Notes under the pieces: model-generated
What the model saw: the letters and a program-made list of their open reading frames with translations, nothing else
Told to the model about the DNA's origin: nothing
The model's database searches: none
In this document: positions 14,147 to 40,504 of the stretch, piece after piece
Position numbering within the stretch: position 1 is the stretch's first letter
How the letters are laid out: every line of letters begins with the position of its first letter
Virus record (IMG/VR): IMGVR_UViG_3300035670_000033
Coordinates: 64,001 to 128,000 of that record
Reading direction: 5' to 3' (one strand)
Source: a virus
DNA: 64,000 nucleotides
Program-made: the position numbers and the translations under genes

Positions 14147-14965
14147 TTAATTTCCCTCTTTTCTTCCTGTAACAATTATACGGAACGACTTTAAAGAAGT
14201 CAACTGTTCTGATAAAGATTTTTCGTTTGCCTTGTAGGTTTTGCTTATCTGCGGAGGCTCAATTGAGTCATATATCTTGGCAAGGTCGGCGAATACGGAG
14301 ACATCTATCGTTTCGGCTCCGTCCCCACCAGAGTCAATGGTTGTTCCAGTCCAGTCACCTGTAGCGAGTGCTATTTGAATTTGGTCTAGGTCTGCGACTG
14401 CTATCTGGTTTTCAGCCTTACCTCTTGCTGGCGCTTTAGCCATGTTTTCTGGTGTGTTGTCGTAGATATCAACAACATCAAGATAGAAGTCTTCTCCGTC
14501 AAGCCATCCGCCAATTCCGACTTCTCGTGCGCCTTCCTTCGGATTCAGAAATACTTCCTTACCATGAAATGCAAGCCAAGCCATTGTCGTTTTGATTGCC
14601 GAATCTTTGGGTTCGCCATTCTCATCAAAAACATCGGATTTTTTAAGTTTTACACCGTGTTTATTTCTTCCGATTGATATTCCAGTTCTAACATCGTCTG
14701 CAACAAGTTTGTCTACAGTGAATCCACCGTCACGACCTTTTTCAAGGATTGCTTTGATTCTTTTCTTTCTCTCTGGATCTGCTTTAACAAAAGACATTGT
14801 ACGCTTTTTTGTTGTTCTACGAACCATTTCGGCAGCCACTGGAAGAGGGACATTGTCTTCATCGCCGAGGGTAAACATTCCATCGCCATCTCCGTCTTTG
14901 GGCACTTTGTCGGAGGAGAAACCACCAATTGGTTGACCAAGTATTTTGTACAAAAGTTCGCTCAT
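14147..14965 (-). CDS. DGDGDG-tagged putative head-cargo protein
   Basis: N-terminal YKILGQPIGG...DGDGDGMFTLGDEDNVP shared with 18037 and 19440; C-terminal GGFT...IGGW...YLDV...NQIAVADL domain. Confidence 0.6.
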   Translation of the reverse strand: MSELLYKILGQPIGGFSSDKVPKDGDGDGMFTLGDEDNVPLPVAAEMVRRTTKKRTMSFVKADPERKKRIKAILEKGRDGGFTVDKLVADDVRTGISIGRNKHGVKLKKSDVFDENGEPKDSAIKTTMAWLAFHGKEVFLNPKEGAREVGIGGWLDGEDFYLDVVDIYDNTPENMAKAPARGKAENQIAVADLDQIQIALATGDWTGTTIDSGGDGAETIDVSVFADLAKIYDSIEPPQISKTYKANEKSLSEQLTSLKSFRIIVTGRKEGN

Positions 14966-14968
14966 TGG

Positions 14969-15316
14969 TTATTTTGCTTTTACGATTCCGTCGGGGATGA
15001 CAGCAAATCGGCATTTTCCTTCAGGGTTAACAGGTAACGAGATGATCTTGCATGAAGAACCACCTTCGTATAGAACACAATTGGAGCATTTTACGCCTAT
15101 CTGCGCGACTTCGTTTTGTGAAGGATCGTCGTATCCCGCCCAAACTCCTGTGTAATCTTGATTAAATTTTCCATATTTTTGAGTAATTTGAATGAGGGAA
15201 TCAGCCAGCGCTCGCTCTTCGGGGTGAAGGTTTGGCATTTTTGGTTTAGATATCGCAATCATTCTTACAGGGATTTGCGACATCAGCATTTCTATAATTG
15301 ATTTTTCTTTTTCCAT
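14969..15316 (-). CDS. Four-Cys (HiPIP-like pattern) protein
   Basis: KCSNCVLYEGGSSCKIISLPVNPEGKCRF (C-x2-C-x8-C-x12-C); start re-assigned to MEKEK. Confidence 0.5.
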   Translation of the reverse strand: MEKEKSIIEMLMSQIPVRMIAISKPKMPNLHPEERALADSLIQITQKYGKFNQDYTGVWAGYDDPSQNEVAQIGVKCSNCVLYEGGSSCKIISLPVNPEGKCRFAVIPDGIVKAK

Positions 15317-15317
15317 G

Positions 15318-15727: not shown

Positions 15728-16489
15728 CTAATCCTTGTCCTTAGAGTTCTTATATCGTTCAAGCATTCGTTTGCCTTTAGCGGCTAATTCCCTAGCATCA
15801 TCCGCATTCTGTGGAACTGGTTCACCCCAAGCCGCCGCTGAAAGAGCAAGCCGAGTTGGGCGACCCTTTTCATCTTTCATAGGACCAGAAGGATTGGTGA
15901 AGAACCGTGTAAGAAATGATCCCTTACGACGCATCTTTTCTGGTGTGTCAGCAGGACCCTTGACACCCGGCTTCAAATTGGATCCATCTGTTCTGTTGAA
16001 ATGCGCACGACCCGCTGCGGTTAAACCACCTTTAGGGTCTCTCAGTGGTTTGGCAGATTTCTCTTTGACGATCGGACCACCAGCAACCCACGCACGGCAA
16101 GTCCTTTTTGATGCACATTTGAAATCAAATGCTTCGCAATATCCAAGTTCGCCAGCGCTATCAATTGCTTCCCACTCATCCTGACGATCCCCGCCAGTTA
16201 CACCTTTATTGATGCAGTCTTTCATTGAGGGTGTTTGAATGAAAAGTGAACAGTTACCGCACAATTGTTTTTTAGCGGAAGCATTATCAACGTCCCACTC
16301 TTTTGCTAACTTCCCCCAATACTCTGTGTTTGGTTCAGAAGGGTTGAGCGGACCATACATTGCTGTCTTTATCGCTTTTCCTCTGTTGGCAAGGTTTACG
16401 GCAATGTCCTGTGTGGCTTTAGGGCAAGATTCTTCTGCCTTGACACGGATAGAAATCGGTTGACCGTTGATTAAATCGGTAAATTTCAT
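15728..16489 (-). CDS. Two-module head-associated protein (Cys-rich module + DUF6321-like module)
   Basis: CPKATQDIAVNL..R...YGPLNP...CGNC...C...C...CRAW, then VKEKSA and KGGLTAAGRAHFN...RRKGSFLTRF. Confidence 0.55.
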   Translation of the reverse strand: MKFTDLINGQPISIRVKAEESCPKATQDIAVNLANRGKAIKTAMYGPLNPSEPNTEYWGKLAKEWDVDNASAKKQLCGNCSLFIQTPSMKDCINKGVTGGDRQDEWEAIDSAGELGYCEAFDFKCASKRTCRAWVAGGPIVKEKSAKPLRDPKGGLTAAGRAHFNRTDGSNLKPGVKGPADTPEKMRRKGSFLTRFFTNPSGPMKDEKGRPTRLALSAAAWGEPVPQNADDARELAAKGKRMLERYKNSKDKD

Positions 16490-16570: not shown

Positions 16571-17884
16571 TTAGGCTGATGGAGCCGCATCAAAACTTAC
16601 CTTCACGAACGACTCTGGTCGCTTCACAGCGAGAGCGAGGCGTTGCTCGGCAAGGATCACAATTGCGTTACGCACGAAGAAGTCTGCGTGCTGTTCGCTA
16701 ATGCGGATGCTTGGTGATTCACGGTCGTAGATTTGTGCTCCCGTACCGAATGCACCGATAAGTGCTGTACCTTCAGCAATTGCAGGGGTGTCCACAACTG
16801 GGATCCTCCACAACTTCTGCTCGCCACCCATTGCAACAGAGACTGCTACGACATAAGCGCCGTTGCCGTCCTTGCTGAGTTCAATGTCTTCCCAATCGTT
16901 CGGGTTAAGAACGATACCCGATGGCTCGTAGTAAGCCAAGAAGGAAAGGGTTGCGGCACGACGGATTGCGTCAGCCTTGGTGTCGCTCATACCAGCAGTT
17001 GCTGAGTACACGCCATCCGACCAGTTGTAGGTCTGTACGCCTGAGGTATTCAAGATACCTGTCAGGTTTTCGCCAGTTCCCGAACCGTTAAGGATTTGTG
17101 CATCTTCCTGCAAGCGGAGACCGTACATCAACTCGTTGTCAATGATTGAGCGCAGTTGTGGCTCATCAGCAAGAACATTGCGGTGTGCGGCTTCCCAGTG
17201 AGCCAAGGTGCGAACAGGAGCCTGCTCACCAACGAAGGTGAAAGACGACTGTGGCTTGGCACCGAATGCGGAACCCGAACGCTCAGCAACTGCTGCTGCG
17301 TTGTTGGTGAATCCCGTCATGCGGAAGTATTCAATGATCGCAGCAGTTGTGGTGCGACTTGGGAACAAGTCACGAACACGCTTGGTGCGCATTGGAGGGA
17401 TGACGATTGCATCGCGTTGAATGGTTCCAAACGAGCCAGGTGTACCAGTTGGGAGTGCCGAGTACAAGTCCTTCTGACTGTACACTTCGCTACCCGACTT
17501 GTATGGTGCTGGCATGTTTGCTGAACCGCTAGCCAAAAGGGACTTGAACTCTGCTGAAGCAAGGAATGCTTCACCGATGCTCTTGCGACCCATTGACTGA
17601 ACTACTTGCTGGATTTCCTGTGAAGCGTAAGCAGAAGCCTGTGCTACTGAATCCTGTGGCTCTGAAGCCCACTTGTCAGCATCACGCATTGACTCAAGGC
17701 TCTCAACGAGCGACTTGATCTCGCGGATATCTGCCATGTTCTTGTCAAACGCGGTCTTTTGTTCTGCGGATACGACTACGGTGCCGTCTTCAATTTTGAA
17801 GTTGTCGGCGATTGTCTTGTTTTCTGCCATCTTGGCGCGCATTGCACCTTGAAGTTCAGTTAAACGGCTGTTGTCAAATGACAT
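16571..17884 (-). CDS. Major capsid protein, HK97 fold with N-terminal delta (scaffold) domain
   Basis: Coiled-coil N-terminus, GRK|SIGEAF candidate cleavage site, RVRDLF, VRTLAHW, LRLQEDAQILNGSG, ILAEQRLALAVKRPESF; AGGAG SD before ATG 17884. Confidence 0.93.
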   Translation of the reverse strand: MSFDNSRLTELQGAMRAKMAENKTIADNFKIEDGTVVVSAEQKTAFDKNMADIREIKSLVESLESMRDADKWASEPQDSVAQASAYASQEIQQVVQSMGRKSIGEAFLASAEFKSLLASGSANMPAPYKSGSEVYSQKDLYSALPTGTPGSFGTIQRDAIVIPPMRTKRVRDLFPSRTTTAAIIEYFRMTGFTNNAAAVAERSGSAFGAKPQSSFTFVGEQAPVRTLAHWEAAHRNVLADEPQLRSIIDNELMYGLRLQEDAQILNGSGTGENLTGILNTSGVQTYNWSDGVYSATAGMSDTKADAIRRAATLSFLAYYEPSGIVLNPNDWEDIELSKDGNGAYVVAVSVAMGGEQKLWRIPVVDTPAIAEGTALIGAFGTGAQIYDRESPSIRISEQHADFFVRNAIVILAEQRLALAVKRPESFVKVSFDAAPSA

Positions 17885-17985
17885 GTTTTTCACTCCTAGT
17901 GAATTGGATTTGGTTGGTGATTACTTATGTTTCTTTATTGCAGACTTCGGTAAGCACCTAGTCCAGTTACTATTACTGTAATACG

Positions 17986-18036: not shown

Positions 18037-19443
18037 CTATTTTGAACGGTATCTTTTAACCGCCTGTGGACAGCATCCGCCAGCGTATTTAATACCGTAT
18101 TCCCCTTCATCAAAACCAGCCCATTTTTTGGCTGTTTTACGGTTTTTCCATGGGTGGTCAATAGGCAAAAGATCATTATCTTCCGAATATTTTACATCTT
18201 TGGGTTTTTCCGAGTTCAGCAAAGACAGGAACTTTGAGACCCGCTTATTCGCTTCTTCCCGACCGCCGTCAGCAAAACCTCTAACGAACACAACCTTAAG
18301 GTCGCGAAGGTTGGTTTTGGCAGAAGTTTTTGCTTTAGCATTATTTTTGCGCACCATAACAGCGAGATTATTGATGTCTGTGCTTGTCACGGTTGGAGGC
18401 TTTTTCTTTGGCTTGGGTACACCTTTGTAAAAAAATATTCCGTCGTCCAGTACATCTTTTTGCGATCTTTTAGCCCCACGCGCAAGCATCACATCTCTCA
18501 CATTTAGTTCCTCTGGAGTAACTACGTAAGGAAGTTTCTCTGCGCGACCTACTTCGTTAATGTGTTGTTGTACTTCCTTGGGTGAAAGTTTATATTTGCG
18601 CGATGCGCGAAGGTATGCGAATTTTTGAATTCTGCGCATTTTTTTGGCGTATTCCTTGTCATCTTTGCTGAGACCTGAAGTTTTTACGATCTCATCAATT
18701 GATGATTTCCAATAATTCTTGACATCTTTTGCCTTGTCGTAATCTATTCGTGTTACAGAACGAGGTGCATTCGCTTCACGAGATGGGCTCTTGGGTGCAT
18801 TTTGCCTTCTTCTCCGAACCATTTCTGCTTGATGTTCAGCAAAACTAAGGCGCTGTTTCTTCGGCTTGTTTGCTTTTGGTTTTGGCACTTTTGCTACAGG
18901 AATATTATCTTCGCCATCTGCACCCGTAGCGAAACCATCTCCGTCTCCGTCTTCAAGAGCACCCATCCCACCGATCGGTTTGAACATTCTTCTATAACCA
19001 CTGATTGAACGACCAAGCGCTTTTTCGTCCATTTCTGACTTCTTCTTAAACCCTGAACCTTGGCGTCGCGGATTATTTATCGGACTGTTATCCCCGCGGA
19101 TACCTGTGACACGGTTGTAATCAGAAACATTTGTACAAGGAAGCCAAACAAGTTTTCCATCGCGTGCCGTGTAACGGCGAATACCTATACATCCAAGGTT
19201 GCGTGCACGAATACGGGCAGACTCGGGGTCACTGAAAGTATCAGGATCTGTGGAACGGCTAACAAAGTTAACGAAACCCTTTTCTTCTACAGGTTTCTCT
19301 AAAGTCTGCTTTTTATTCATGCCTTTGATGTACTCAGCAGGATTTTGATTTTTCACTATTGTAAAGTAATAAAAATCAGCCTTCTCATCAGGCGACAAGG
19401 TTTGTACGAGAATGGCTAATTCTCTTGATTCGGTAGGTGTCAT
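18037..19443 (-). CDS. Modular basic head-associated protein with LGCxG module and DGDGDG tag
   Basis: ARNLGCIG...WLPC; DEKALGRSISG...PIGG...DGDGDGFATGADGEDNIP; C-terminal RG...RVSKFL...DNDLLPIDHP module. Confidence 0.6.
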   Translation of the reverse strand: MTPTESRELAILVQTLSPDEKADFYYFTIVKNQNPAEYIKGMNKKQTLEKPVEEKGFVNFVSRSTDPDTFSDPESARIRARNLGCIGIRRYTARDGKLVWLPCTNVSDYNRVTGIRGDNSPINNPRRQGSGFKKKSEMDEKALGRSISGYRRMFKPIGGMGALEDGDGDGFATGADGEDNIPVAKVPKPKANKPKKQRLSFAEHQAEMVRRRRQNAPKSPSREANAPRSVTRIDYDKAKDVKNYWKSSIDEIVKTSGLSKDDKEYAKKMRRIQKFAYLRASRKYKLSPKEVQQHINEVGRAEKLPYVVTPEELNVRDVMLARGAKRSQKDVLDDGIFFYKGVPKPKKKPPTVTSTDINNLAVMVRKNNAKAKTSAKTNLRDLKVVFVRGFADGGREEANKRVSKFLSLLNSEKPKDVKYSEDNDLLPIDHPWKNRKTAKKWAGFDEGEYGIKYAGGCCPQAVKRYRSK

Positions 19444-20678
19444 ATGGTTTCCACAAATCCTTCTTCAACGGCGAGCATTGACCTATCCCATACAACAAAA
19501 AAATTGTCTTTAGTTAGAGCAGCCCTATGACCCTTAGCCGCGAAGAGACGACCAATATCGTCGTCTCCACCGAACTCACTTTTTCTACCGCTGTATCTCG
19601 CCTCAATCATTTCATCAAATTCTGATCTCTCTGTAACGGTGTTCGGGGGAATTGCCACCCTCATCACCGTTCCTTGCATCGCATTATTAATATAGGCGTA
19701 TTGTCTAGCGGTTCTAAGGTCATCCGTAAAATAGATTCCATTAGCCTGATGACCCATACCCGCCCAGTAGTCACCTTCCATAAACTGTTTTGCCAACTGT
19801 TCAGATGTTGACAATCTATTATCAGGGGTGCCAGGTAAATCGGCGTTAAAAACATCCTTAATGCCTCGGTAAGCAATCGTCCAACCCTCTTGTTCCAACT
19901 GTTTCATTTTTTCAGACGAGACAACTTTTGGCTTGCCCGTAAAACCCTGTTTTTCCGCAATTATTTCAAGTTGGACATCTCCATATTGCTTTCCAGCAAG
20001 TTTGTATTCATTCGTTCGCTTTTTTATTTCTTTGTCGCCCTCTGATCTAACTTCAATAAAACCCCTATAGTTTCCAAAGTAAACTTTCAAATCGTCCGTA
20101 ATGTCCTTGGCTCGCTTAAGTATTTTTTTAGTAGGGGCAGGAATATTGTCTTCTCCGTCAGGACCAGTAGTGAACCCGTCGCTATCGCCGTCAAACTCTG
20201 CTACACCACCAATAGGGCGACCTAAAGACTTGCCAGAAAACGAGCCAGTTACAAGCCCACCACCCGGCAAGGTTGCGATGCCAGTAATAGGTTTCTCGTC
20301 AAGGTTCTCCCAACCCCGTTTAGGTGCCTTGTGGTTGCAAACCGCATAATACTTTTTCCCTGCAAGCAGAACAGTTCGTACACCACCACAACCACGAGCC
20401 TTAGAAATAGCAACAGCATCAGCACGATTCTCATAATATGCATCAGACTTTGTTTCTAAACGCTTGGTGCGTTGAACCATTTTCGGCAAAGGTTTTTTAT
20501 TATTTGAAGCACGAACTTTTAAATACTCTTCTTTACCCTTTTTGATTCCCTCATATTCTTCGTGTGAGGCGCAAGGCATCCAACCAGCATCGGTCTCATG
20601 GGCTCCCTGACATCCAAGCATGCGGGCAACACGAAGCGCCTGATCCCTAGTGGTTTTATTCTTTTCGTCTTCAGACAT
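19440..20678 (-). CDS. DGDGDG-tagged protein with C-terminal ADP-ribosyltransferase-like domain
   Basis: Two LGC/RGC modules, SGKSLGRPIGG...DGDSDG...EDNIP, then IAYRGIKD...GMGHQANGIYFT...ARQYA...GTVMRVAI. Confidence 0.65.
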   Translation of the reverse strand: MSEDEKNKTTRDQALRVARMLGCQGAHETDAGWMPCASHEEYEGIKKGKEEYLKVRASNNKKPLPKMVQRTKRLETKSDAYYENRADAVAISKARGCGGVRTVLLAGKKYYAVCNHKAPKRGWENLDEKPITGIATLPGGGLVTGSFSGKSLGRPIGGVAEFDGDSDGFTTGPDGEDNIPAPTKKILKRAKDITDDLKVYFGNYRGFIEVRSEGDKEIKKRTNEYKLAGKQYGDVQLEIIAEKQGFTGKPKVVSSEKMKQLEQEGWTIAYRGIKDVFNADLPGTPDNRLSTSEQLAKQFMEGDYWAGMGHQANGIYFTDDLRTARQYAYINNAMQGTVMRVAIPPNTVTERSEFDEMIEARYSGRKSEFGGDDDIGRLFAAKGHRAALTKDNFFVVWDRSMLAVEEGFVETI

Positions 20679-20941
20679 TATTGTTTTTCTTTTTTAGATA
20701 CTTTTTCAACCTCTGAAGCATATTCCATAGACATCGCGTACTGATCAAATAGTTCATCTATTTTGTCTGCATTCTCTTTGTTCATCAGATACGAGACCAT
20801 TGACTCAAGGTCACCATCTTTGCCATTTTCATTTGCATACCCGTAGGCAATGGCAATAATTTTAGAACGTGTCTCAGGGTTCTTTACTGTCGTTAGCAGT
20901 TGATTTTTGATTGAGTTTTTTTGTTCTGTTGTAAGTTTCAT
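20678..20941 (-). CDS. Small partner (immunity-like) protein
   Basis: 87 aa, start overlaps the stop of the GNAT-like effector. Confidence 0.55.
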   Translation of the reverse strand: MKLTTEQKNSIKNQLLTTVKNPETRSKIIAIAYGYANENGKDGDLESMVSYLMNKENADKIDELFDQYAMSMEYASEVEKVSKKEKQ

Positions 20942-23900
20942 TACGCCAACCTCGGTGGTTCCACCCGTATTCTAGGGCGAGCAATTTTTGGTTTCTTAGG
21001 GAGTTTCTGACCAATTTTTTGTTCAGCAAAAGATAGCGTTCCACCACCAAATCCAAGATTTGCTTTAAACCATTGTTTCACATATTCCATTTTTTCCCTG
21101 TCGCCAGTAGGATCATCCAAAGCAAAGATTATGTCTTGATGCTGATACTGCTTACCACCTCGCGCCTGTGCGAGAATTGATTTAATTCTCGCATATTCTG
21201 CGTCATTGTTTATCAATCCGCCAGCACCAAAATCCTCATAAAATTTGAGAGGTGACTGAAGCACCTGTAGGTCTCTGTCTGCCAAGCCATAGTTTCTTTT
21301 GAATCCAACACGAGCCCAAACATATTGTCCATCATCGGCTGCGTTCACCATCGCCTTTGTGACACCTATTTGCTTCAGGTAAAGAAACGCGTGCTGGTTA
21401 TAAATTGTTTGAATATCAGCGCCTCTATCTATTTTGCTTGTCACAAACATTGAATTTTGGCTTACCGTACCCTGCGATACGCTTACACTCCGAGACGATT
21501 TAGCGATTGCTGCTCTTATAACTTCACCGTTTGCGTTGATCTCGTCAAACGTAACCGAAATCTGAAACCCATTTTGAGGAGACACTGTTGCGGTAGCACG
21601 GTAAAGTTTCCCGTTCTTGCCTTCAATTCTTTGGTGGGAATAAGCCTGTTTCAAGTACTCTGCCTTTTGCGGAGCAGTGAGTCTTCCCCATTTTACGGGT
21701 GTCATGTCTTCATATGGTGCACCACCGTTTGGGTGCCGTTGCTTAAGATACTTAGCAAGTTTCCCTTGACGACGTTCAATCGCCTCGTTCACCTGATCAT
21801 TGATCTTCTTCGCTACATCTTCTGGAAGCGGTCTAGGAATATTTGTTGCATCTGGATTGAAAACAAAACCTTGTTTCCTTCTTTCTGATGCTTTCCGTAT
21901 TTCTGGTCCTAATGCTTCTATCAACTGAAGATGACCTTCATATTTGCCAATATCAGACTGTAATTGAGCAATTTTTTTCATTGTCTCAACACGGTTGAAT
22001 TCTTTTGCTTCTGGAGTATTTCCAATAGGTGAACGCATAAGTCTGAATTCTGCGCTTAGTTGTGTTTCTAATTCGGTAAGTTTGGTTCGCACACCCGCGA
22101 CACCACCTTGTGGTCTTACGTATCCGATATATTTTCTTTTTGCCTCGGTGACTAAAGCCGATACATCGGCATCGGGGTTTGCTCGGAGCAAATCAGCAAC
22201 TCTTGAAAGTTCTTTTTGAAAGTTCCGCACCGCTAGTTGGCGACCTTCATTTTGGTTGAACAATGCTTGATCGGCTAGTAATCCAAGTTGTCCCAAAAGT
22301 TTTGGATCTTGCATTTGAAGCAATACTTCTTCAATCAGATCTTCATTTTCTTTTTTGAATTTGGCTGCTTCCATCTTTGGTGGAACATGCTTCAGTTCGT
22401 CTGGAACATCTCGGATATCGCGTGGCGATGGGGTGTCAACACTATTAGCGATCGGAGCGTCAACTGGAGGTTCTCCAGTACGGTTGGCGTCATAGATTTC
22501 CTGCCATGCGTCCCTGTAGTCTTTAATATATGTTTTAATGCGGGCAATATTTATTTCCTCGTCTTGCCTTCGTTCAATGAAGTCATTGTCAGAAAGTTCA
22601 CCTCTAGCAATCGCTTGCTCTATACGCGCTATCCTTGCATCCGCTGCAACTATTTTTTGTGCGGCTTCAACCAATTTCTGTCCGCGTCCAGCGCCAATGG
22701 GTGGGAAGTTGGCGGGGTCATTGATGATCATTATCCTGTCATTTGGCATGACATCATTTAAAACATAACCTTCAAAGTCTCTATCGTTAAGAACTTCATT
22801 CAGGTTAACCCTTTGTCCTGCACCACGCGCTCTATCCGCTCTGGCTTGGCGCATTCTTTCCGAGTTGGCAGCGTTGTCACTGTTGCCGGGTTGTGGGCGA
22901 GCGGGAGATGCCTCTGGTTTTGGTTTTCTGCGTTTAGGTCCTGCTACGGCACGACGCTCTTCCGATTCGGCATCAAGTAGTGCACCAATATCGTTCCTGT
23001 CGGGGTTTGCCCTAGGGCGACGAGGTTTAACTACTTTTGGCTCAACAACTGAGCGTGGAGGCTGAAGACGCCTTACCTCTTCTTCCAACTTAACTATTTT
23101 TTCTCGTTGACGCCTGATTGCTTGTGGCGCCGCACTATTCTGTCGCATCATCTGCAACATGTCTCGTGCTTCGTTAAGATCACGCTCTGCTACTGCGAGC
23201 GGATCGGTCTCATTTGCTCGGCGTGTTGGTGCTTTAGGTTTCTTTGTTGCTTCAACTACGGCACGACGGCGACGGCGAGCAGGCGCTTCACCAGTTCTTG
23301 GTGCACCCGGCTGTTCAATTTCGCGTTGCATTCTTCTTTGTTCTGATTCACGAAGATTTCCTTCACCTCGTGGTCTTGCAGGTTGACGTCTGCGAGCAGG
23401 GCGTGCAGGAGCATTGCGTCGTCTTAGTTCCGCCATTACTCGTTTGTAATCGTCGCTGTCTCTTCCGCCAGTAGCGTTCTCTAATTCGTCGCGCATTTCC
23501 TCTAAAACCTCTAGAGGTTCTGCGGCGAGAAGATTTGCTTCGTCACGGGCAGGGCGAGCGGGTGCTTGTCGTCTGCGTTGCGGACGAGGTGCAGGTGTTA
23601 ACTCTCTAGGTGCTTCAGGTGTGTCAACCGACGGTGGTCGTGCAACAACAGTTCGCCTACGAGCGCCACGAGGACTAGGGGCATTCCCGCCATCCAGTCG
23701 CTCAGCAATACCACGTAAACCTTGCTCAAGACGACCAGCACCACCGCCTTGGGGGTTAAGTCTTGCAAGTATTCGGCGTTCACGACGAGCAATACGACGA
23801 CCACGGCGAGCATCATCAACATTTTCCAACCGTTGACCAATATCTGATATTTGATTAGCGATGCGTCGTGCGACCCCCCAACCGCAAGACCGACCAAAAC

Positions 23901-24090: not shown

Positions 24091-24408
24091 TTAAGCCTTA
24101 AAACTTTTTTTATTTGGAAGAGACTTAATTTGATTTTTATACATTTCTTCAGTTACTTGCCCATCAGAACTGTATTGTGCGGACATTGAATTAAGACGGT
24201 AAAGAATATATTCCATTCCGCTTCCCTCCAAAGGGATCTCGTTTCGTGCCGACGATTCTGAAAGAATTTCAATAAGTTGATCAACAAGTTCTTTATCGGA
24301 AGCGTGTATTTCTACAAGTCCATCAATATTTTTTCCAGCGCAAGACCCATTTACCTTGTTTGTAAATGGATCCATGAATTGACCTATAAAAAACTCTCTC
24401 ATGATCAC
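24091..24408 (-). CDS. Small partner (immunity-like) protein
   Basis: 105 aa, overlaps the stop of the upstream kinase-like effector by 4 nt. Confidence 0.55.
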   Translation of the reverse strand: MIMREFFIGQFMDPFTNKVNGSCAGKNIDGLVEIHASDKELVDQLIEILSESSARNEIPLEGSGMEYILYRLNSMSAQYSSDGQVTEEMYKNQIKSLPNKKSFKA

Positions 24409-27284: not shown

Positions 27285-27408
27285 TGTTTACTTTCCACAT
27301 TTGTGAAGGCATTGAGCAAGCCCTGTAAGTCTTGCGTCGCAATATCGCTACTGTAAAATGGTATCACTAACGGCAGATATCAAAATTATGACACTGTAAA
27401 CATATTAT

Positions 27409-27702: not shown

Positions 27703-27707
27703 GATAT

Positions 27708-32416: not shown

Positions 32417-32617
32417 TCAGCCGTCTTGTTTTACTGGCTCCCAATATCCTCGGGAAAGAACCGAGTCAATCATGACTTCCGTTTGGACGCCGTTCCCCAT
32501 TTGTATGAAACCCATTCTCCTAGACACACCTTCCACAGGGCTGTCATGGGTGTAAAAAAGTTTATCGTTACCCCTGTTGGCTATGTGCTGATTGTTGACT
32601 AAGTGCTGATTTTTCAT
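32417..32617 (-). CDS. Small partner (immunity-like) protein
   Basis: 66 aa ending DSVLSRGYWEP, overlaps the stop of the DUF3626-like gene. Confidence 0.5.
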   Translation of the reverse strand: MKNQHLVNNQHIANRGNDKLFYTHDSPVEGVSRRMGFIQMGNGVQTEVMIDSVLSRGYWEPVKQDG

Positions 32618-34290
32618 ACAGGCGATTCTTCCTCTACTAATTCTTGTTCTGTCTTCACCACATCCATAATTGTCCCCGACTGCACATCAAACTTTTGATT
32701 TTTCCTTACAGGTGCGACACGAATGCCTGCTTTTTCAAGTTTTTCTCTGATGGTTTCAAAGTCTTTTTCGGTGACACTGTTACCAAACGGATCGTTGTCG
32801 TCAACGGCGATAACGGCAAATTCAACGTCTCCTGTGGATACGCCTCCGTGCAATTGTGCTTCCGCATACTCAATTTTGTATGGACTCCAAACCGCATCTG
32901 CGCTTGGTGTGCCAATAGGTGCTGGTTTGTAGGTAGGTCTTCCGAGACTGTCTCCACCTGTATATGTTGAGCGCGACTCAATGTCTTTTTTCATCATCAA
33001 CTGAATGGCACCATAAGTTCTGACTTCGGTCAACGAATCACGGTCAACCTTCCCGTTCTGTGTGAGATATCCGTAAATAGGACGCTTTGACGGCTCAACA
33101 CTTGGGTGGTACCCCAACTGAACAGCCTCTGATTGTGCGCGTTGACCAAAATCCAAAGTACCCATAGATGTACCTGTTTCAAACTGCGATTTGAAACGAC
33201 CAGATTCAAGTATCTTGTCCAAAACATCGGGTTGTACTGCAATTGTCACGCGCGAGTTTTCTATGGTTTCTTTCGCTGTTTGCAAACGACGCTCTTCACT
33301 AAAGTTTTCATCAAAGGCGGTGACGTTTCCGGCTCTAGTTTGCGCCTGCCATCTTTTGTGTCTGAGTAAATCAACTTGTGCTTCAACAATTATTTTTGTT
33401 TCATCTGAATTGAAACCTAGATTTCCGTATTCAGTTGTTGCTATTTTCGCGTAGGCGTCCATCAGATCTGTTACTTCGCTGTCTGTTGTATTTGGATCTT
33501 GAATTAACGGCAAAGAACGATCATATTTATCTTGTACTGAACTTGGGAAAGTCCCAACTAGAAGCATCTTCAATGGTCTTCCAGTTTCCTTTGCTTCGGC
33601 GATGTCATCTGTTGGGGTGCGAACATCATCAAGTTCTTTTTCTTTTTCTTTTTTATCTTTACGCCTTTTCAGGCTTGCTAGCACAAAGTTTCTTGCGTCA
33701 ACCGCAGCATCTTTTTTGAGTTTTGACGCAACCGCTTCCAACTGTTCTTTTTTCTTGTCAGATATTTTGCCTCGTTTATGTAGCGAATCAGAAGCAAAAT
33801 CCAATAGTTGCCCCCCACCAACCCTTAATAGCATCGCGCTCATGAGTGTGGAATCAGTAAGAGAACCTGAACCGTCTACATGCATATAATCTAATGTTTG
33901 TAAAGCCAAGAGCGCTGTTGCTTTTGCGCCATTCCTTATATTTTCGTTTTTTAGGATGCCTCTAGCACCATCAATGAGTTTCCCAGCCATAGAAGCCGCC
34001 CCGCGGGCTGCTGATTCAGCAGAAGGTGTAAGACAGTTTGACATTTGCATGTCGGTAAATTGGTTCGCATTTGGAGTTCCGGGCGGGCATCGTAGTTTGC
34101 CTGATGAGTCAACAATAACACCAGCGGCTCGCGCTGCTCTTACTCCAACAGAACCTAGTTCGGGTTTATCTTTGATCGTCGGACCAAGAAAACCTTTGAA
34201 TAAAAGAATGTTATCTTGGACAACTTTCACCGACTGAAAATAGTCGGCTACTCTCTCGTTTGCGTCAAATGCGCGAGACGATTTGCTCAT
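32614..34290 (-). CDS. Cys-tagged effector with C-terminal DUF3626-like (ART-like) domain
   Basis: LRCPPGTPNANQFTDMQMSNC tag; GRFKSQFETGTS...RPIYG...YG...TYTGGDS...YAEAQLHG; start MSKSS with GGAGGAG SD. Confidence 0.7.
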   Translation of the reverse strand: MSKSSRAFDANERVADYFQSVKVVQDNILLFKGFLGPTIKDKPELGSVGVRAARAAGVIVDSSGKLRCPPGTPNANQFTDMQMSNCLTPSAESAARGAASMAGKLIDGARGILKNENIRNGAKATALLALQTLDYMHVDGSGSLTDSTLMSAMLLRVGGGQLLDFASDSLHKRGKISDKKKEQLEAVASKLKKDAAVDARNFVLASLKRRKDKKEKEKELDDVRTPTDDIAEAKETGRPLKMLLVGTFPSSVQDKYDRSLPLIQDPNTTDSEVTDLMDAYAKIATTEYGNLGFNSDETKIIVEAQVDLLRHKRWQAQTRAGNVTAFDENFSEERRLQTAKETIENSRVTIAVQPDVLDKILESGRFKSQFETGTSMGTLDFGQRAQSEAVQLGYHPSVEPSKRPIYGYLTQNGKVDRDSLTEVRTYGAIQLMMKKDIESRSTYTGGDSLGRPTYKPAPIGTPSADAVWSPYKIEYAEAQLHGGVSTGDVEFAVIAVDDNDPFGNSVTEKDFETIREKLEKAGIRVAPVRKNQKFDVQSGTIMDVVKTEQELVEEESPV

Positions 34291-34302
34291 CGTCTCCTCC
34301 AA

Positions 34303-34569
34303 CTATTCTTTGCTGGTTTCTGTCGCTTTTGTAAGTGTGGAAAGTGGAACAACATCATCATCCTCTACTGCTTTTTTAGGAGCCTTCTTCGTTTCCACTT
34401 TTTGCTCTACGACAACTTCTTGCTCAACAGTTTCTTCTTTTACTTCAACTTCAATAACCGCAGGAGTATCTACCACAACAACATCTGGTGTTGGCTGTAT
34501 TTCTTCCTTGGTATCAAAGGTTAAGCCAGAAGTACTGACTGAATCATTGATTTGGTTTTTCTTTTTCAC
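34303..34569 (-). CDS. Small acidic low-complexity protein
   Basis: 88 aa, V/E/K/T rich. Confidence 0.45.
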   Translation of the reverse strand: MKKKNQINDSVSTSGLTFDTKEEIQPTPDVVVVDTPAVIEVEVKEETVEQEVVVEQKVETKKAPKKAVEDDDVVPLSTLTKATETSKE

Positions 34570-36047
34570 TTATCCAAACCTGTTTCAATTTCAAGCATTT
34601 CAAGTTCCATCAAACTGCTCAAGAACTCTTTTGCTTCATCATCAAGAAGGGTCTTCTCTTCTGACCACTCAGCAGGAATCATGTCCTCTTTGTCAAGTTC
34701 CATTGCACGCTTTTTGATGTGTGCCATTGCCTTGCTCTTGTCTTTTGCGCGACCATAAGCCATGATTGCGTTCTTGAGGTCTTCCTCGTCCTTGATTGGG
34801 TAAGAACCGTCAGCCATAGCCATTCCGCCCTTAGCCATTTCCATGCGCTCATCTTCGTCGTACATTGCCTTCAAAGCAATGTCGGCTACTTCTTCGTCAA
34901 TGTCGGCTGCTTCTTCAGGATCGTATTCATCAAAGCCAAGGATTTCTCCGTCTACTCCGACATAAACATCGTAAGACTTTCCATCCAAACCTTCAATTTC
35001 AACTGCGTATGCGTCGTAACCGTCAAACATGTCTGCATCAACGGAAACAACATCGCCTTCAATTGACTTTGTTGCGATTGCTGAAGCCTCACTGAAAGAA
35101 ATTACTTTCTGACCCGGAACGGTTACTACTTCACCGATCAGATCTTCGTTAAGAAGATGCCAACCCATGCACTCACCGCTTGTTCCGTCAAAGTAAGCCT
35201 CAACAGGTTTTCCATCTTTGCGTTGAACATCTACAACGAAGATGTCTACTTCGTCTGCATAGCCTGAGTCAAGAACTTTTCCTGCGAACATACTCTCAGC
35301 CATACCTTCAACTTCAAGAAGGCTTGGCATTGTGTCTTGTTGTTCACATCCACCTGGACATGAAGCGCAGATTTCCGAACCACCTGAATAAACGCGACGC
35401 TCAATAGCGCAAACAAAAGCAAGATCGTCATAGTCAGCAGACTTGACACCCATTGTCTCCATGCGCTTTGCGCGTGCCTTCTTGCGCTGTTCCATCATCT
35501 TTTCAATCTCGCCATACATCTTTTCTTCTTCATCGTCAAGATCTTCAGGCATGTCTTCTTCGTCGTCTTCCTCTTCCATTTCCACGACTTCAGCAGGCTT
35601 CTTTTTCTTTTTGGTTGAAGAGGTTGACATTTCGTCTTCCATCATCGCAAGATCTTCTTCCAACTTTGCGCCCTTCTCTTCCGAAGCGGTAACCCATTCC
35701 GATTTCTCCACTGGTGTTGCTGCCTCAGGCGCGGCATCTGCTGGAACTTCTTCTTCTGTTTGTGTTACAGCCTTCGCTCCACACTTGCCACAAACTTTTG
35801 CGCCGGGCTTGTAGCCACAGTCTTTTAGTTCTAAACCTTTTGCACACTCAATTCCGCCGTCTGCTAAAAGTTTTACTGTCGGTGTTTCGCTAGCCATGTT
35901 CGTGGACTCCTTGTAGTGCATCGTTTTAGCGATACACCTTGATGGATTAGAGCAAACAGAGCATGGCGTCAGACGCTTTTCGCCTGACATCAAACACTGA
36001 TACTTTGCTGTTTTTTGTGGTAAACCTGTTATTGAAGTATAACTCAT
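34566..36047 (-). CDS. Acidic head-assembly protein with Cys clusters, tandem PepSY-like domains and a C-terminal capsid-associated module (start possibly 35897)
   Basis: PSLLEVEGMAE...VVDVQRKDG...FDGTSGE and ISFSEASAIA...YAVEIEGLDG...VDGEIL (PepSY pattern); ADGSYPIK...DLKNAI.AYGRA...HIKKRA..L...IP..W. Confidence 0.6.
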   Translation of the reverse strand: MSYTSITGLPQKTAKYQCLMSGEKRLTPCSVCSNPSRCIAKTMHYKESTNMASETPTVKLLADGGIECAKGLELKDCGYKPGAKVCGKCGAKAVTQTEEEVPADAAPEAATPVEKSEWVTASEEKGAKLEEDLAMMEDEMSTSSTKKKKKPAEVVEMEEEDDEEDMPEDLDDEEEKMYGEIEKMMEQRKKARAKRMETMGVKSADYDDLAFVCAIERRVYSGGSEICASCPGGCEQQDTMPSLLEVEGMAESMFAGKVLDSGYADEVDIFVVDVQRKDGKPVEAYFDGTSGECMGWHLLNEDLIGEVVTVPGQKVISFSEASAIATKSIEGDVVSVDADMFDGYDAYAVEIEGLDGKSYDVYVGVDGEILGFDEYDPEEAADIDEEVADIALKAMYDEDERMEMAKGGMAMADGSYPIKDEEDLKNAIMAYGRAKDKSKAMAHIKKRAMELDKEDMIPAEWSEEKTLLDDEAKEFLSSLMELEMLEIETGLDK

Positions 36048-36101: not shown

Positions 36102-38201
36102 TTACATTGAGTCCATAATGTTGAGAAGCGCATCAAAGGCATCATCTTCAACATCACCGATTTCAACTTGTACACCCTCTTCCGTGACTTCTGATTTCAT
36201 CTGATAATAATCCAAAATCGGATCAAGAAGTTCTTTCACTTCATACAGGGAGTGCTCCGACGAGGAGATGAGAAGCATTTCTTTTTCATCACCCAACAGT
36301 GATTTTGCTTCAATATCCGAAGAAACGCCACCAGCATTAAGAACTTCTTTTAGAAGATTGAAAGCGTTTTGCAGTTTTGTCATATTGCGAGAATTAATGA
36401 CTCGTCCTGCCTTCACCTCAATGTCTTCGTCGGCATCTTTGCCCATAAGTTCCGAAATAGCCGCCATAAGCATGCCCATCATTTGCTTTGGGTCTTTGCC
36501 CCCGCCGCCACAACCACAGTCGTCATCGTCTCCGTCTCGGGAGTATGGCATCTCTACAACGCCACCATTATCATCGTCGCCTTCCATGACCCAATTGTCT
36601 TTATCAGCCATGTAGTTGATGAAATCTGGTTCAGCGTTCATGAATTCCTTAAGAGCCTCATACGCTTTTTCGTTGCCCTCGTCTTCGTTCTCAAACTCAA
36701 CATCTTCCATTTTCATGGTTTCTTCTGTTTCATCTGATTCAGCCAAACGACTAGCCATAGCCTCCATCATTTCATAACCCTTTTCCTCAGAGTCAAGGAA
36801 GTCAAATATTGACTTGATTTCTTCTTCAGTCATGGATTCAATAGACTTTCCGGGTTTGAGCACTCCGCCGAGACGGTTATTAAACTCACTGTCATCCCAA
36901 TTTCGTTTGCGTAGTTTTCCACGACAATTCTTCATGCCCGGATGATGGCATCCTTCGTTCGGCCAGAGACCCGTTGTTTCGTGATGCAACCAAGCACAGA
37001 TATTGCTCAACGGGTAAAGTTCTGGATGATTTGCAAGGATTACTCGGCATCGGCGGAATCCGCCCGGCTTGCGCATGATTGGGCGCCAGTAGCGAAGTAG
37101 TTTTTCAAGGTTCCCACGACGCGGACCGTATCCACGGGTTCGTGCGGTAACAATTTCCTGAGGGATTATTCCGCCAAGTGGGTCAGCCTTTTCAGGTGAC
37201 TTTGGCTTAACACCAGCAGGTACTTGTGGGTCTTCATCCATGCGGTAGCGGTCTTCATAACGGCGTTCACCATCAGACCCGCTAGGCGTATCGCCGTCTG
37301 CGTTGATATAGACGGTTTGTGGCTTAACCCTTGTTGGTTCGCCGAACATGAACTGTCCATCTTCAAAATGGTAGGAGACACGCATAGTGGTAATTCCACC
37401 CTGTTCGCCTCTGTGGTCAAAGATGACGCTGTTCGCATCTGATTCCCTTAACCGTACTGCTCCACCAAACTTCTTCGCTAAAGCAAGCGGAAGGTTCTCT
37501 TTGCGTCCCTTTGCTGGCATTGGAGCATCAACCGCATCATCATCTTCTTCTTCACGAGGCTTCTGCCTGTTCATGCTGTTAGCGAGAATACGCATAAGCA
37601 AAGAACGACCTTGTTCTGTTAACTTGCCATCACCATCGCGCATTTGACCTTTGATTTCAGAATCATCTGTTTGATTTTCAACCGACTTTATTGAAATCGT
37701 GCCAGTCAGTTGGTTTGCGCCATGAAGCACAGGGCTTGCTTCATAGAGTTCAACTTTTTTCAAAACATTTGCTTGACGCTGTGGGTCAAAGTCCGCATCT
37801 AGAGTCTTGTAGCCAATTGACCATTCTTGTTCTTCGCCAAAGAAAGCAACATCAGCGAAAGCCTGTCGTCCTCGTTCGGACTTCAGGTTGAACTGAACTT
37901 TCGCGTACAGACCGCCGATACCAGCGGCGCGCATTTTGATAGGAAGTCGTGGGTCAGAAGGTGGAACTTCATACATTTCAAGGACTTTGCCGATTGGCTC
38001 ATTCCAGTTGTGTCCCCATACAACACGGGGTTTGCGCCTTTTCAGGCTTTCCGTGAACGCGCCGGGGACGATGATGTCGCCTACAGAGTCCTTGTTGCCA
38101 ATTCCCGCGACGAAACATTCAACAACGCCGAGTGCCTCGTCAATATTGAATTGACCCTGAAGGGCTTTATATTGCTGTGTTTCTGATAATGCTGTTGGCA
38201 T
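36102..38201 (-). CDS. HK97-type prohead (capsid maturation) protease with long C-terminal extensions
   Basis: GNKDSVGDIIVPGAF, VVWGHNWNEPIG, GGLYAKVQFNL, EWSIGY, LYEASPVLHGAN; then a YW...GGFRRC...CAWLHHETTGLWP module and EVK|AGRVINSRN; start MPTAL (GGAG SD). Confidence 0.88.
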   Translation of the reverse strand: MPTALSETQQYKALQGQFNIDEALGVVECFVAGIGNKDSVGDIIVPGAFTESLKRRKPRVVWGHNWNEPIGKVLEMYEVPPSDPRLPIKMRAAGIGGLYAKVQFNLKSERGRQAFADVAFFGEEQEWSIGYKTLDADFDPQRQANVLKKVELYEASPVLHGANQLTGTISIKSVENQTDDSEIKGQMRDGDGKLTEQGRSLLMRILANSMNRQKPREEEDDDAVDAPMPAKGRKENLPLALAKKFGGAVRLRESDANSVIFDHRGEQGGITTMRVSYHFEDGQFMFGEPTRVKPQTVYINADGDTPSGSDGERRYEDRYRMDEDPQVPAGVKPKSPEKADPLGGIIPQEIVTARTRGYGPRRGNLEKLLRYWRPIMRKPGGFRRCRVILANHPELYPLSNICAWLHHETTGLWPNEGCHHPGMKNCRGKLRKRNWDDSEFNNRLGGVLKPGKSIESMTEEEIKSIFDFLDSEEKGYEMMEAMASRLAESDETEETMKMEDVEFENEDEGNEKAYEALKEFMNAEPDFINYMADKDNWVMEGDDDNGGVVEMPYSRDGDDDDCGCGGGGKDPKQMMGMLMAAISELMGKDADEDIEVKAGRVINSRNMTKLQNAFNLLKEVLNAGGVSSDIEAKSLLGDEKEMLLISSSEHSLYEVKELLDPILDYYQMKSEVTEEGVQVEIGDVEDDAFDALLNIMDSM

Positions 38202-38293
38202 GACGCTCCATATATGTTGGTTTATAAACAATAAACCATTTGAAGCGTCAAAAAAGGAACACTTTCAGTATAACTAGGTTATTTTACTGAAAA

Positions 38294-40504
38294 CTACTCT
38301 TTGTCAAACCCGAAACGAAGACGACAACGACAATTAAATGTAAGCGCAGGTGGCGCTATCGGATCACCCGGAAATCGCAACATCATTCCGTCAACAACAA
38401 AACCATCACCAAATTTAACGGTTTTGCCTTCAAGGAACTTGTGAGCGTTGCGAACACGGGAATCTTTTCTAGTCAGCCAAGTCTTAGTGAAACCACCCTG
38501 ACTGTCTTTACCCGCTAAATAAACACCGCCGTTGTACGAAGCCTGAGCCTCATGTTCAGCAATGTCCCTTTTCCTCTTGGAAATAAGTTTCAAAAATATC
38601 GCTATCAAAGCCAACCTCAAAAGAGTGGATCGTTCCTCTTGGTCTGCTTCCATCATGGCAACAGCGATCGCCGCGGCTATCTCTTCTGCTGTCCCCGTGT
38701 TGGCTTGTTGCATCCGCTCTATTTGCTGTTGCGCAAGTTTTTCAACTTCCTGTGGTTCAAGCGCGACTTGCTCACTGGTTCGCGACGCCACATATTCCTT
38801 GGCGTCAACATAAATCGCGGAGATAATTGGCTCCAGGTCATCTTCTAATTGCTTGTTCCAAATCTCGGGATCAAAAACCATGTCAACAGTAAGCGCTCCG
38901 CTAGCCAGTGCTTTCACGCCACGCTTACCAAACGCTTTTTCCATGACCACTCGTTGCTGTCTTTCAAATAGTCGCTCTAAAGCGCGATCAAGTATTTCCG
39001 TCCACCTGTCAGTATCTGTGTCGGCTTTGGTTTCAATTTCCTCAACGAACTTAAGTTGCATCTCATGTTGAATTTTTTCAAACTCTGAGAGTTGTTGATC
39101 AGGCGTGAGAGCCGCTGTTTCTGTTGGTGCTTCCGCTGGCATATCTGGCGCTGGCACTGGTGCAGGTGGAGCGGGTGGCGGTATAGCCATTGCACCATCT
39201 TGAGGTGGAAGACCGCCGGGTACTGCATTCGGATCAACACCAGCCATATCAACAGGCTGTTGTTCTTCAGGTTTGAACGGCTTCTCCGTGTTCGCGATAG
39301 GCGTGAGGTTCGGGTTAGAGAGAAGCGAATCCGCAAGTTCTGATTCAACTTTTTTTCTTCCTGTTGCCGTACGGTACTCGTTCAACGAAATGAGACCCTG
39401 TTGAAATTCGTCCATTACATATCGTTCGCGTTCTTGTTTAGCAAGAATCAAAATAGGAATGTCGTCGGTATCAAAGTCAACATAATATTTATCGTCAAGT
39501 TCATCAAGCGCACGAGCAATCGTGTGCAGGTGAGGAGCCATTGTCTCCATCCAAAAAACACGCAGTTCTTCTGACGCATTTGAGAAAGTTCTTCCAGCGG
39601 CGTTACCGATTACTGACTCTGGCACTCCGAACGCGGCAAAGATTTCGTTCTTCTGTATTTCTCTCATTTGCGAGTAGGCGGCATCTCGCGGTGATGCGGA
39701 GGTGTCTACATAGTCAACTCCTGCTTCAGATGCAATAACTGTTGTAGAACCAGTCTTGGAAAGGTTGCCCCTGAAACGGTTTTTCAATTCTTGTTTATCG
39801 TCGTCTTCCATGTCGCCACGAACAACTAGCAAACCGCCGGGTCGTCCATCGTTCAACAAGTAGTTCCTGTTATACAGTTTTGACAGAGTTTCTAATTCAA
39901 TTGCTATACCAGCAGATTCCATTGGTGTCATGGAAAGGTATGGATCTAATGGGTGGGGTCGGCGAATCCAACAAACATCTTCTGGCTTAAGAACAAACTT
40001 TGTTCCGTTGCGCATATCAACTTCAAAACCTGCAACAAATCTTTTAGGGTCAGGGATCGGTGCAGTGAATTGAGGCGGAAGAAGTTGCAGAGCAATAATT
40101 TTCCCGTCTCGCGAGCGAACCTTCTCAATGAATACGCCTCTTGTGCTCATCAAAAGTTGAGCGGAAATTCTGTAGCGGAAAGCGAATGAGTTTTCACCTT
40201 CATTGGACTTGGAGTTAAAAATCTCTAGTAGTGACTCGTTGCTCTTTGTTTTTTCTCCACGCTGATCATTGCCTTTTCGCAAGATGACAGGAAGTCGCGC
40301 TTGGTTTCCTGCGATTGCATCTATGCATCGGAAAACCCATGTAACTTTTTGCATGCCGTCGCGATATGCGCGTTCAATGTCCCAACCGTCTTTGTACGGT
40401 TTGCCTTGGCGTGAAACATCAAATGCAACTGGTGCGCCGGGGTTTGACATTGCCTTTTCAGCAAAGTTCCTGAGATCCTTATTGTTATTGCTGTTCCAAG
40501 CCAT
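38294..40504 (-). CDS. Portal protein fused to a C-terminal MuF-like (SPP1 gp7-like) minor head domain
   Basis: Portal: WVFRCIDAIA, YNRNYLLNDGRPGG, IFAAFGVP...N.SN; Pro-rich linker; MuF: KTWLTRKDSRVRNAH...LRFPGDP...NCRCRL. Confidence 0.88.
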   Translation of the reverse strand: MAWNSNNNKDLRNFAEKAMSNPGAPVAFDVSRQGKPYKDGWDIERAYRDGMQKVTWVFRCIDAIAGNQARLPVILRKGNDQRGEKTKSNESLLEIFNSKSNEGENSFAFRYRISAQLLMSTRGVFIEKVRSRDGKIIALQLLPPQFTAPIPDPKRFVAGFEVDMRNGTKFVLKPEDVCWIRRPHPLDPYLSMTPMESAGIAIELETLSKLYNRNYLLNDGRPGGLLVVRGDMEDDDKQELKNRFRGNLSKTGSTTVIASEAGVDYVDTSASPRDAAYSQMREIQKNEIFAAFGVPESVIGNAAGRTFSNASEELRVFWMETMAPHLHTIARALDELDDKYYVDFDTDDIPILILAKQERERYVMDEFQQGLISLNEYRTATGRKKVESELADSLLSNPNLTPIANTEKPFKPEEQQPVDMAGVDPNAVPGGLPPQDGAMAIPPPAPPAPVPAPDMPAEAPTETAALTPDQQLSEFEKIQHEMQLKFVEEIETKADTDTDRWTEILDRALERLFERQQRVVMEKAFGKRGVKALASGALTVDMVFDPEIWNKQLEDDLEPIISAIYVDAKEYVASRTSEQVALEPQEVEKLAQQQIERMQQANTGTAEEIAAAIAVAMMEADQEERSTLLRLALIAIFLKLISKRKRDIAEHEAQASYNGGVYLAGKDSQGGFTKTWLTRKDSRVRNAHKFLEGKTVKFGDGFVVDGMMLRFPGDPIAPPALTFNCRCRLRFGFDKE

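Follow-up and report, generated by a model that had tools for sequence, protein, structure and literature searches.

Candidate lysine-directed processing sites in the head and tagged cargo proteins of an uncultured freshwater phage

Does a prohead protease of the HK97 type mature only the capsid, or can it also process a whole array of other head and cargo proteins? The question is raised by the head operon of an uncultured freshwater phage (IMG/VR record IMGVR_UViG_3300035670_000033), which we analysed in bases 64001-128000 of a single 138,071-bp contig (hereafter the window, 64,000 nucleotides long, whose own numbering is used throughout). The operon, at 14147-40504, lies on the minus strand, as do all genes and sites given below. 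It encodes a portal-MuF fusion, an S78 serine protease, an HK97-fold capsid protein and, among others, eight proteins, here called cargo, that carry one of two tags: a Cys motif, R-C-P-x-G ... T-D ... C-G, is common to five of them and an acidic D-G-D-G-D-G motif to the other three. Within the 138-kb genome, both tags are confined to these eight proteins. A first-pass annotation of this DNA had proposed that a K|[A/G/S] cleavage code (the bar marks the putative cut) recurs through the operon. The HK97 precedent is the capsid protein gp5, which is cleaved at K103/S104 by the phage's own protease (PMC10275583). We find that candidate sites exist, that they sit at module borders, and that they are selectively conserved only in the head proteins. 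That the S78 protease cuts after these lysines inside the prohead, in structural proteins and in cargo leaders alike, is a prediction from sequence towards which, on balance, we lean.

All peptides on which the first-pass annotation had relied are present in the genes it named. They are FAEK|AM (K17) and IETK|AD (K493) in the portal; QYK|AL (K22), EIK|GQ (K194), EEK|GY (K484) and EVK|AG (K607) in the protease; EVK|AV, EIK|GV and EVK|GV in three Cys-tag paralogues; ETK|AG (K241) in p571 and LFK|GF (K36) in p562; and DEK|AL (K141) in p468, SGK|SL (K150) in p412 and GRK|SI (K104) in the capsid protein. Three key sites (GRK|S, DEK|A and SGK|S) fall outside the annotation's own expression, [EVIL]xK[AGS]. 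When this expression was counted over the 8,521 residues of the 19 head-operon proteins and compared with composition-preserving shuffles, it occurred 36 times, with 36.1 +/- 5.6 expected; in the 47 other proteins of the genome, the corresponding figures are 38 and 38.9. The simpler K[AGS] is slightly under-represented in the head-operon proteins (135 versus 144 expected). The enrichment test is therefore negative and, as a pattern, the proposed code does not rise above chance. A refined version, hydrophobic-polar-[VTI]-K, was found 17 times in the head proteins versus 10.1 expected (P = 0.02), for a motif that was defined post hoc. Such counts would suit the view that there is no code at all, merely a degenerate three-residue pattern that can be found anywhere and whose conserved cases are ordinary residues of folded domains, the more so as the first-pass sites were chosen by eye once the tags had been seen.

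What does set these lysines apart is their conservation. IMG/VR homologues at most 80% identical, taken from 158 and later 217 loci, were projected onto each window protein, and each residue was scored as its own conservation minus the mean of the 24 surrounding residues. In the head proteins, lysines followed by A, G or S are more conserved relative to their surroundings than other lysines (p = 1e-4), an effect that persists without the paralogous tag copies and without basic low-complexity regions; the same excess was looked for in 14 other residue types of the head proteins, and none had it. We also scanned nine positions for nine residue classes around 67 unusually conserved head lysines and 429 others. 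A, G or S follows the lysine (position P1') in 40% of the conserved lysines versus 18% of the others (p = 9e-5), a difference that remains significant when 81 tests are corrected for; P4 is enriched in hydrophobic or aromatic residues. Among head lysines with a hydrophobic P4 and A/G/S at P1', 18 of 38 are unusually conserved, compared to 49 of 458 other lysines (odds ratio 7.5; p = 1e-7, an optimistic value because the P4 feature was read off the same data). In 24 tail-module proteins given the same treatment, the fractions are 1/16 and 33/227 (odds ratio 0.39). The remaining 20 of the 38 head lysines are not especially conserved, as expected if there were no code. Against that view stand a conservation contrast that is specific both to lysine and to head proteins, a P1' preference that emerged from a scan over all positions and residue classes, and the coincidence of the sites with module borders. 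We consider the absence of any code distinctly unlikely.

The unusually conserved set contains most of the first-pass sites (protease K607 and K643, portal K17 and K493, p562 K36, p571 K241, p468 K141, p954 K27, capsid K104 and p412 K150) and adds protease K182, p253 K17 and p493 K202, which the annotation had not listed. A junction signal shared by the head proteins is thus upheld by its conservation, head specificity and position at module borders, and not by the frequency of the original expression. The best-kept sites have a hydrophobic or aromatic P4 and often V, T or I at P2. The A/G/S of the proposed code is over-represented after conserved lysines, but it is not the invariant part: at the Cys-tag site of distant relatives, R or K follows the lysine in 25 of 65 sequences, and D follows capsid K141. 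An E or Q at P3 looked promising by eye and in a first contrast; it was not significant in the position scan and was dropped from the motif. A second flavour, K|[SA]-[LI]-G, occurs 13-25 residues before the DGDGDG core in many non-orthologous proteins of the relatives and also at capsid K104. As a class, K-x-[LI]-G lysines have no excess conservation (n = 9), so that what speaks for this flavour is its recurrence beside the DGDGDG tags and at capsid K104.

The capsid protein (16571..17893; PF05065, E=5e-46) has an N-terminal scaffold (delta) domain and matches the HK97 gp5 chains 1OHG, 2GP1 and 3QPR of the PDB with E about 1e-56; the mature HK97 chains have 282 residues compared to 385 in the precursor. 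The first-pass annotation had taken GRK|SIGEAF for the equivalent of HK97 K103|S104, and this assignment has to be revised. In a profile alignment with gp5, K|SIGEAF falls on HK97 K75|S76, at the start of the scaffold spoke helix, while HK97 K103|S104 aligns within a residue or so of K141|D142 (lysine codon 17471-17473); in the match to the gp5 chains, taken without gaps, residue numbers here equal the HK97 numbers + 39. Both K141 and D142 are invariant in 49 of 49 relatives. K104|S105 (codon 17582-17584), on the border between linker and spoke helix, has lysine in 35 of the 49, followed by an invariant S/T-[LIV]-G. The HK97 scaffold domain lines the capsomer with a helix, S76-S88, and extends the P-domain sheet by a strand, K92-G97 (PMC10275583). 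Our capsid model is poor overall (mean predicted local distance difference test score, pLDDT, 47.5); it has a confident coiled coil at residues 8-77, with helices at 8-30 and 43-77, a low-confidence linker at 78-105 and a helix at 106-122, which the alignment places on HK97 S76-S88. A PDB search with the first 164 capsid residues returned nothing. The maturation site is therefore better sought at K141|D142, as well as or instead of K104|S105, and K104 is a plausible additional candidate cut at the linker-helix border rather than the counterpart of the HK97 maturation site. Most relatives have an aromatic residue at P4 of K141 and V or T at P2 (Y-N-V-K|D), resembling the Y-E-V-K that ends the Cys-tag leaders described below; we regard this likeness as a lead only. 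Separately, the start of the longest capsid open reading frame (17884-17893) is probably too early, given that M4 is invariant and residues 1-3 are missing in the relatives.

The enzyme itself is present and looks active. The 709-residue protease (36102..38231) matches PF04586 over residues 37-186 (E=2.3e-11) and the head maturation protease family phrog_80 (E=2.8e-29), and aligns with HK97 gp4 (E=8e-14) such that H74 and S138, both invariant in 23 relatives, fall on H65 and S114, which we take to be the catalytic residues of gp4. Its clearest candidate site is K182 (codon 37686-37688) at the end of the catalytic domain, in I-S-I-K|S, with lysine in all 50 relatives; ISIK|SV lies on HK97 gp4 AAMK|SV. 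K607 (36411-36413), in [IMV]-[EDQ]-[VT]-K|A-G-R, is lysine in 43 of 43 relatives, and K643 (36303-36305) in 36 of 43. K194 (37650-37652) and K484 (36780-36782) are further candidates. K22 (38166-38168) is doubtful: it is invariant, but it lies within a conserved N-terminal stretch and opposite an Asp in HK97 gp4. The AlphaFold2 models of protease and capsid were too poor for fold searches, and we used them only to tell confident from unconfident segments. The protease model places K22, K182, K194, K607 and K643 in stretches with pLDDT <50 that connect blocks of better prediction. Residues 383-439 of the protease contain a cluster of cysteines and histidines (C395, H402, C412, H416, H417, C428, H429, H430 and C436) that is invariant in 23 relatives and without a Pfam match. 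The cluster points to a metal-binding domain that separates the S78 domain from the acidic C-terminal part. The longest-reading-frame start of this gene (38201-38231) is likewise probably too early, the HK97 gp4 alignment and most relatives beginning at M11.

Similar sites are found in neighbouring head proteins. The portal-MuF fusion (38294..40504; 736 residues; PF04860, E=1.3e-48; PF04233, E=2.5e-7) has candidate sites at K17 (codon 40454-40456), which is lysine in 25 of 28 relatives, and at K493 (39026-39028), which is lysine in 35 of 35, has the profile [LWV]-[ED]-T-K|A and sits between a Pro-rich linker and the MuF part. In p493, an acidic 493-residue protein (34566..36047), the site is MGVK|S at K202 (35442-35444; lysine in 36 of 37 relatives). 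p253 (15728..16489; DUF6321, PF19846) begins with a 17-residue leader ending in IRVK|A at K17 (16439-16441); here lysine is kept in 20 of 20 relatives and the P1' alanine in 17 of 20, with the profile [VFI]-x-[VIT]-K|A. In several relatives, DUF6321 is part of the protease and directly follows its ISIK site; in the window the module has a gene of its own, with a leader whose IRVK end mimics that site. Such fusions were seen in protease genes of loci L133, L142, L144, L147 and L151-L154, some of which also have a small Cys-rich module; together with p253 downstream of the capsid gene, they form a clean fusion/fission pair.

Among the Cys-tagged proteins, p954 (27708..30572) and p1048 (20941..24087) each start with a 27-residue leader, ending in YEVK|G (K27, codon 30492-30494) and YEVK|A (K27, codon 24007-24009), respectively, and followed by the Cys tag. 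The leader before the Cys tag of p959 (24405..27284) is the same as that of p954; it comes after a 110-residue N-terminal part and ends in FEIK|G (K138, codon 26871-26873). At this leader site, lysine is kept in 65 of 65 relatives, with Y or F at P4, E at P3, V or I at P2 and G, R, A or K at P1'. In p562 (32614..34302), which has a DUF3626 C-terminal part (PF12294), the leader runs to LLFK|GF (K36, codon 34195-34197; lysine in 35 of 35 relatives) and the Cys motif is at residue 72; one distant orthologue has VK|SIGRSI at this place. The fifth, p571 (30573..32288), consists of a leader, ETK| at K94 (32007-32009), a 150-residue DUF5872 cassette, a second ETK| at K241 (31566-31568) and the Cys motif at residue 304. 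K241 is lysine in 31 of 39 relatives, with the profile hydrophobic-[ESQ]-[EVIT]-K|[AV]-G. Ten p571 orthologues without the insertion have a leader, a single x-x-[VTE]-K site and the tag, and it is exactly at this single site that the cassette is inserted in the clade of the window, with E-T-K on each side. This arrangement, together with the head-specific conservation and the low-confidence linkers of the protease model, supports a lysine junction signal. As for the kinase-like C-terminal domains of p954 and p959 (24405-30572), they have D-R-H-G-G-N and [IM]-D-x-[GS] motifs like the catalytic loops of PI3/4-type kinases and gave no significant Pfam hit.

The DGDGDG proteins carry the second flavour. 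p412 (19440..20678) has two DUF3721 units (PF12518), then FSGK|SLG (K150, codon 20229-20231), a DGDSDG tag at residue 163 and an enzyme-like C-terminal part; p468 (18037..19443) has an N-terminal part, MDEK|ALG (K141, 19021-19023; lysine in 18 of 24 relatives) and a DGDGDG tag at residue 165; and p272 (14147..14965) has a mere 7-residue leader, K7|ILG (14945-14947), and the tag at residue 24. That the tag begins soon after such a site is true of all eight tagged proteins, the lysine preceding the tag core by 11-63 residues, though by itself this spacing is weak evidence because K[AGS] occurs about once per 60 residues. The further claim that the cargo proteins are polyproteins fits p571, p412, p468 and p959, with N-terminal parts of 138-241 residues, but not p954, p1048, p562 and p272, whose short leaders (7-36 residues) are more like a T4-type propeptide. 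The place of the cargo genes between portal and capsid genes, and the confinement of the tags to the operon, lead us to infer that the cargo is present in the virion. In close relatives, the N-terminal part of p412 (two DUF3721 units and tag) is joined to most of p468 in a 735-residue protein (L001:7650-9857) that lacks the ADP-ribosyltransferase-like C-terminus of p412, which indicates that the cargo array is reshuffled at short evolutionary distances. More distant relatives (L049, L055, L072, L059, L063 and L075) have proteins of up to 2,146 residues with a variant of the acidic tag, F-D-P-N-A-x-D-G-D-x-D-G-x-V-Q-E ... E-R-P, which looks like a lone calcium loop of the EF-hand or dockerin type.

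The same lysines could instead belong to tags that remain uncut and serve to dock intact proteins on the scaffold domain, the portal or the inner surface of the capsid, with K-x-L-G-x-P-I-G and Y-E-V-K as the packaging signals. Several observations fit this well. The lysine is always found together with its tag, K-x-[LI]-G being joined to the DGDGDG core as a single module in about 26 of 48 distinct contexts; recombination break-points fall after the tag and not at the lysine, p412 residues 1-182 being reused in a fused relative; and proteins with the tag at their extreme N-terminus still retain a short leader and the lysine. Moreover, capsid K104|SIG is aligned to the spoke helix of HK97, which lines the inside of the capsomer, so that similar peptides could be binders, and the K-x-L-G-x-P-I-G or S-L-G-x-P-I-G-G segment presumably resembles encapsulin cargo-loading peptides, which are short, rich in Gly, Leu and Ile and bind inside an HK97-fold shell. 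On the other hand, the lysine stands out from variable surroundings in protease K643 (0.67 versus 0.20), p571 K241 (0.74 versus 0.37) and capsid K104 (0.71 versus 0.40), which is typical of a cut site and not of a binding block. Portal and protease carry the same signal and yet need no packaging tag, and the duplicated ETK around the p571 cassette is hard to fit. Docking without cutting is in our view rather unlikely; docking and cutting are compatible with each other and need not be exclusive.

In the processing account that we prefer, the HK97-type S78 protease encoded in the operon would act inside the prohead on the capsid protein, the portal-MuF fusion, its own long C-terminal extension and the eight tagged cargo proteins. 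The signal would consist of lysine at P1, a hydrophobic or aromatic P4, often V, T or I at P2 and usually a small P1', with K|[SA]-[LI]-G as second flavour. The capsid scaffold domain would be removed at K141 and probably also at K104, the MuF part would be freed from the portal, and the protease domain would be detached from its appended modules. Cargo proteins would lose a short leader or a whole N-terminal module, and their new N-terminus would lie at or close to the Cys-motif or DGDGDG tag. T4 internal proteins carry a capsid-targeting sequence; here, cargo might be loaded through a leader that is then cut off, as in T4, or through the tag that stays on the protein. Cutting by the S78 enzyme, packaging of the cargo and the side of the cut on which the packaging signal lies are all steps that we infer.

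Besides the optimistic p value given above and the lack of enrichment of the loose motif in head-operon proteins, several points weigh against this account. With P1' alone, the odds ratios are 3.1 for head and 1.3 for tail proteins, a marginal difference (estimated z about 1.7). When the 612 head lysines are scored with a matrix derived from capsid K141, p954 K27 comes first, yet tail hits score equally, with 4/612 head and 3/339 tail lysines at score 3 or more; the matrix does not discriminate between the two, as would be expected if there were no code. HK97's own site, TFNK|S, lies outside the P4/P2 pattern. Several conserved motif lysines, such as portal K99 and K523 and p493 K393, fall within what are probably folded domains, where other constraints may explain their conservation, and the structure models are of low confidence (pLDDT 52.7 for the protease, with the capsid value given above).

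What ties the lysines to the S78 enzyme is co-occurrence and the HK97 precedent, and the cuts might instead be made by another trypsin-like protease, for instance one of the host, or only once the proteins have been ejected into the host cell; for some systems, processing of polyvalent phage proteins after injection has been proposed (PMC5512222). However, the same signal is present at the capsid scaffold border and at the protease's own domain border, which in HK97 are cut by the prohead protease, and Pfam and phrog domain searches found no second peptidase domain in the head operon. Either alternative is very improbable. A more specific form of S78 processing would combine docking and cutting: the cargo leaders would copy the scaffold-to-N-arm junction of the capsid protein (an aromatic-x-V/T-K strand end), behave like pieces of scaffold, dock under the capsomers and be clipped by the lysine-specific protease. 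This proposal is tentative and, we think, has a low probability of being right. If true, it would describe a general loading code by which a family of large freshwater phages packs interchangeable kinase-like, ADP-ribosyltransferase-like and nuclease enzymes into the head.

To our knowledge, the capsid protein and the protease itself are the only substrates of the HK97 protease. The likeness of our system to HK97 gp4/gp5 comprises the homologous protease and capsid protein, the predicted N-terminal coiled-coil scaffold domain, lysine at P1 (here of candidate sites) and Lys-Ser-Val where the catalytic domain ends. HK97, in contrast, has no cargo array, whereas here there are about 520 extra protease residues, a portal fused to MuF and eight tagged proteins with similar sites. 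With regard to these additions, the candidate system would be a Lys-specific counterpart of T4/phiKZ-type head processing. We know of no experimentally established head-protease processing of packaged, ejected proteins outside the Glu-specific T4/phiKZ-type proteases. In SPN3US, gp245 cleaves after an AXE motif in itself, in the capsid and portal proteins and in abundant proteins that are ejected, and SPN3US, phiKZ and T4 each have one head protease that recognises A-X-E or L-x-E (PMC10052503). SPN3US gp245, phiKZ gp175 and T4 gp21 thus resemble the system proposed here in that one protease with one short motif serves capsid, portal, itself and cargo, and N-terminal propeptides are removed. 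They differ in being Glu-specific members of the T4 gp21 branch, while the enzyme here is of the HK97/S78 type with lysine at P1, as predicted from sequence, and beyond the putative cut its cargo has two more conserved tags. Literature searches found no paper on a Lys-specific head-processing code for cargo, and nothing usable on S78 protease specificity beyond HK97, T5 pb11 included.

The cargo array also recalls the polyvalent proteins, large multidomain effectors encoded beside portal/MuF genes that are predicted to be packaged and injected, with shuffled modules, and whose processing has been ascribed to peptidase domains within the protein itself (Iyer et al. 2017, PMC5512222). The head-gene neighbourhood and the shuffling of modules between relatives are the same, and the large chains here may likewise be multidomain effectors; here, however, no internal peptidase domain was found, and the joints share their signal with the capsid protein and the prohead protease. 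Among cultured phages, the closest capsid protein is that of Gordonia Bendigovirus (e.g., Hanem and GMA6), with 46% identity over 97% of the length. The operon logic is alike (large portal, ADP-ribosyltransferase and large unknown proteins, maturation protease, capsid), and the K|D-V-F-S site of the capsid and the V-K|S-A site of the protease are conserved; the differences are a shorter protease (454 residues) and no Cys-motif or DGDGDG tags. In Hanem (L219, 11311-40684), a VIP2-like ADP-ribosyltransferase, an RNA ligase and a 971-residue unknown protein are encoded between portal and protease. Several of the Hanem genes in this interval are annotated as minor tail proteins, which is doubtful given their position.

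If the prediction is right, the mature ends of the proteins injected by this phage family could be read from sequence, and a short leader or tag might serve to bring foreign proteins into HK97-fold capsids. Trypsin-based proteomics is blind to cuts after lysine, which may explain why such sites go unnoticed.

In its wider setting, the operon is flanked on one side by genes for ribonucleotide reductase, primase-helicase and methylase, and on the other by a baseplate-J tail module. IMG/VR holds hundreds of relatives, none cultured, with 70-98% capsid identity; in GenBank phages, no match was found to the protease C-terminal domain, the Cys tag or the DGDGDG tag. Pfam names in the cargo-type proteins are limited to DUF3626, DUF5872, DUF3721, DUF6321 and SNase; the kinase-like and ADP-ribosyltransferase-like parts were recognised by eye only, and their neighbours are head genes. 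The gene order starts with the portal-MuF fusion, the S78 protease, p493, p88, p562 (DUF3626) and p571 (DUF5872), continues with the paralogous giants p954, p959 and p1048, with small genes between them, and then p412 (DUF3721) and p468, and ends with the capsid protein, p253 (DUF6321), a staphylococcal-nuclease homologue, p132 and p272.

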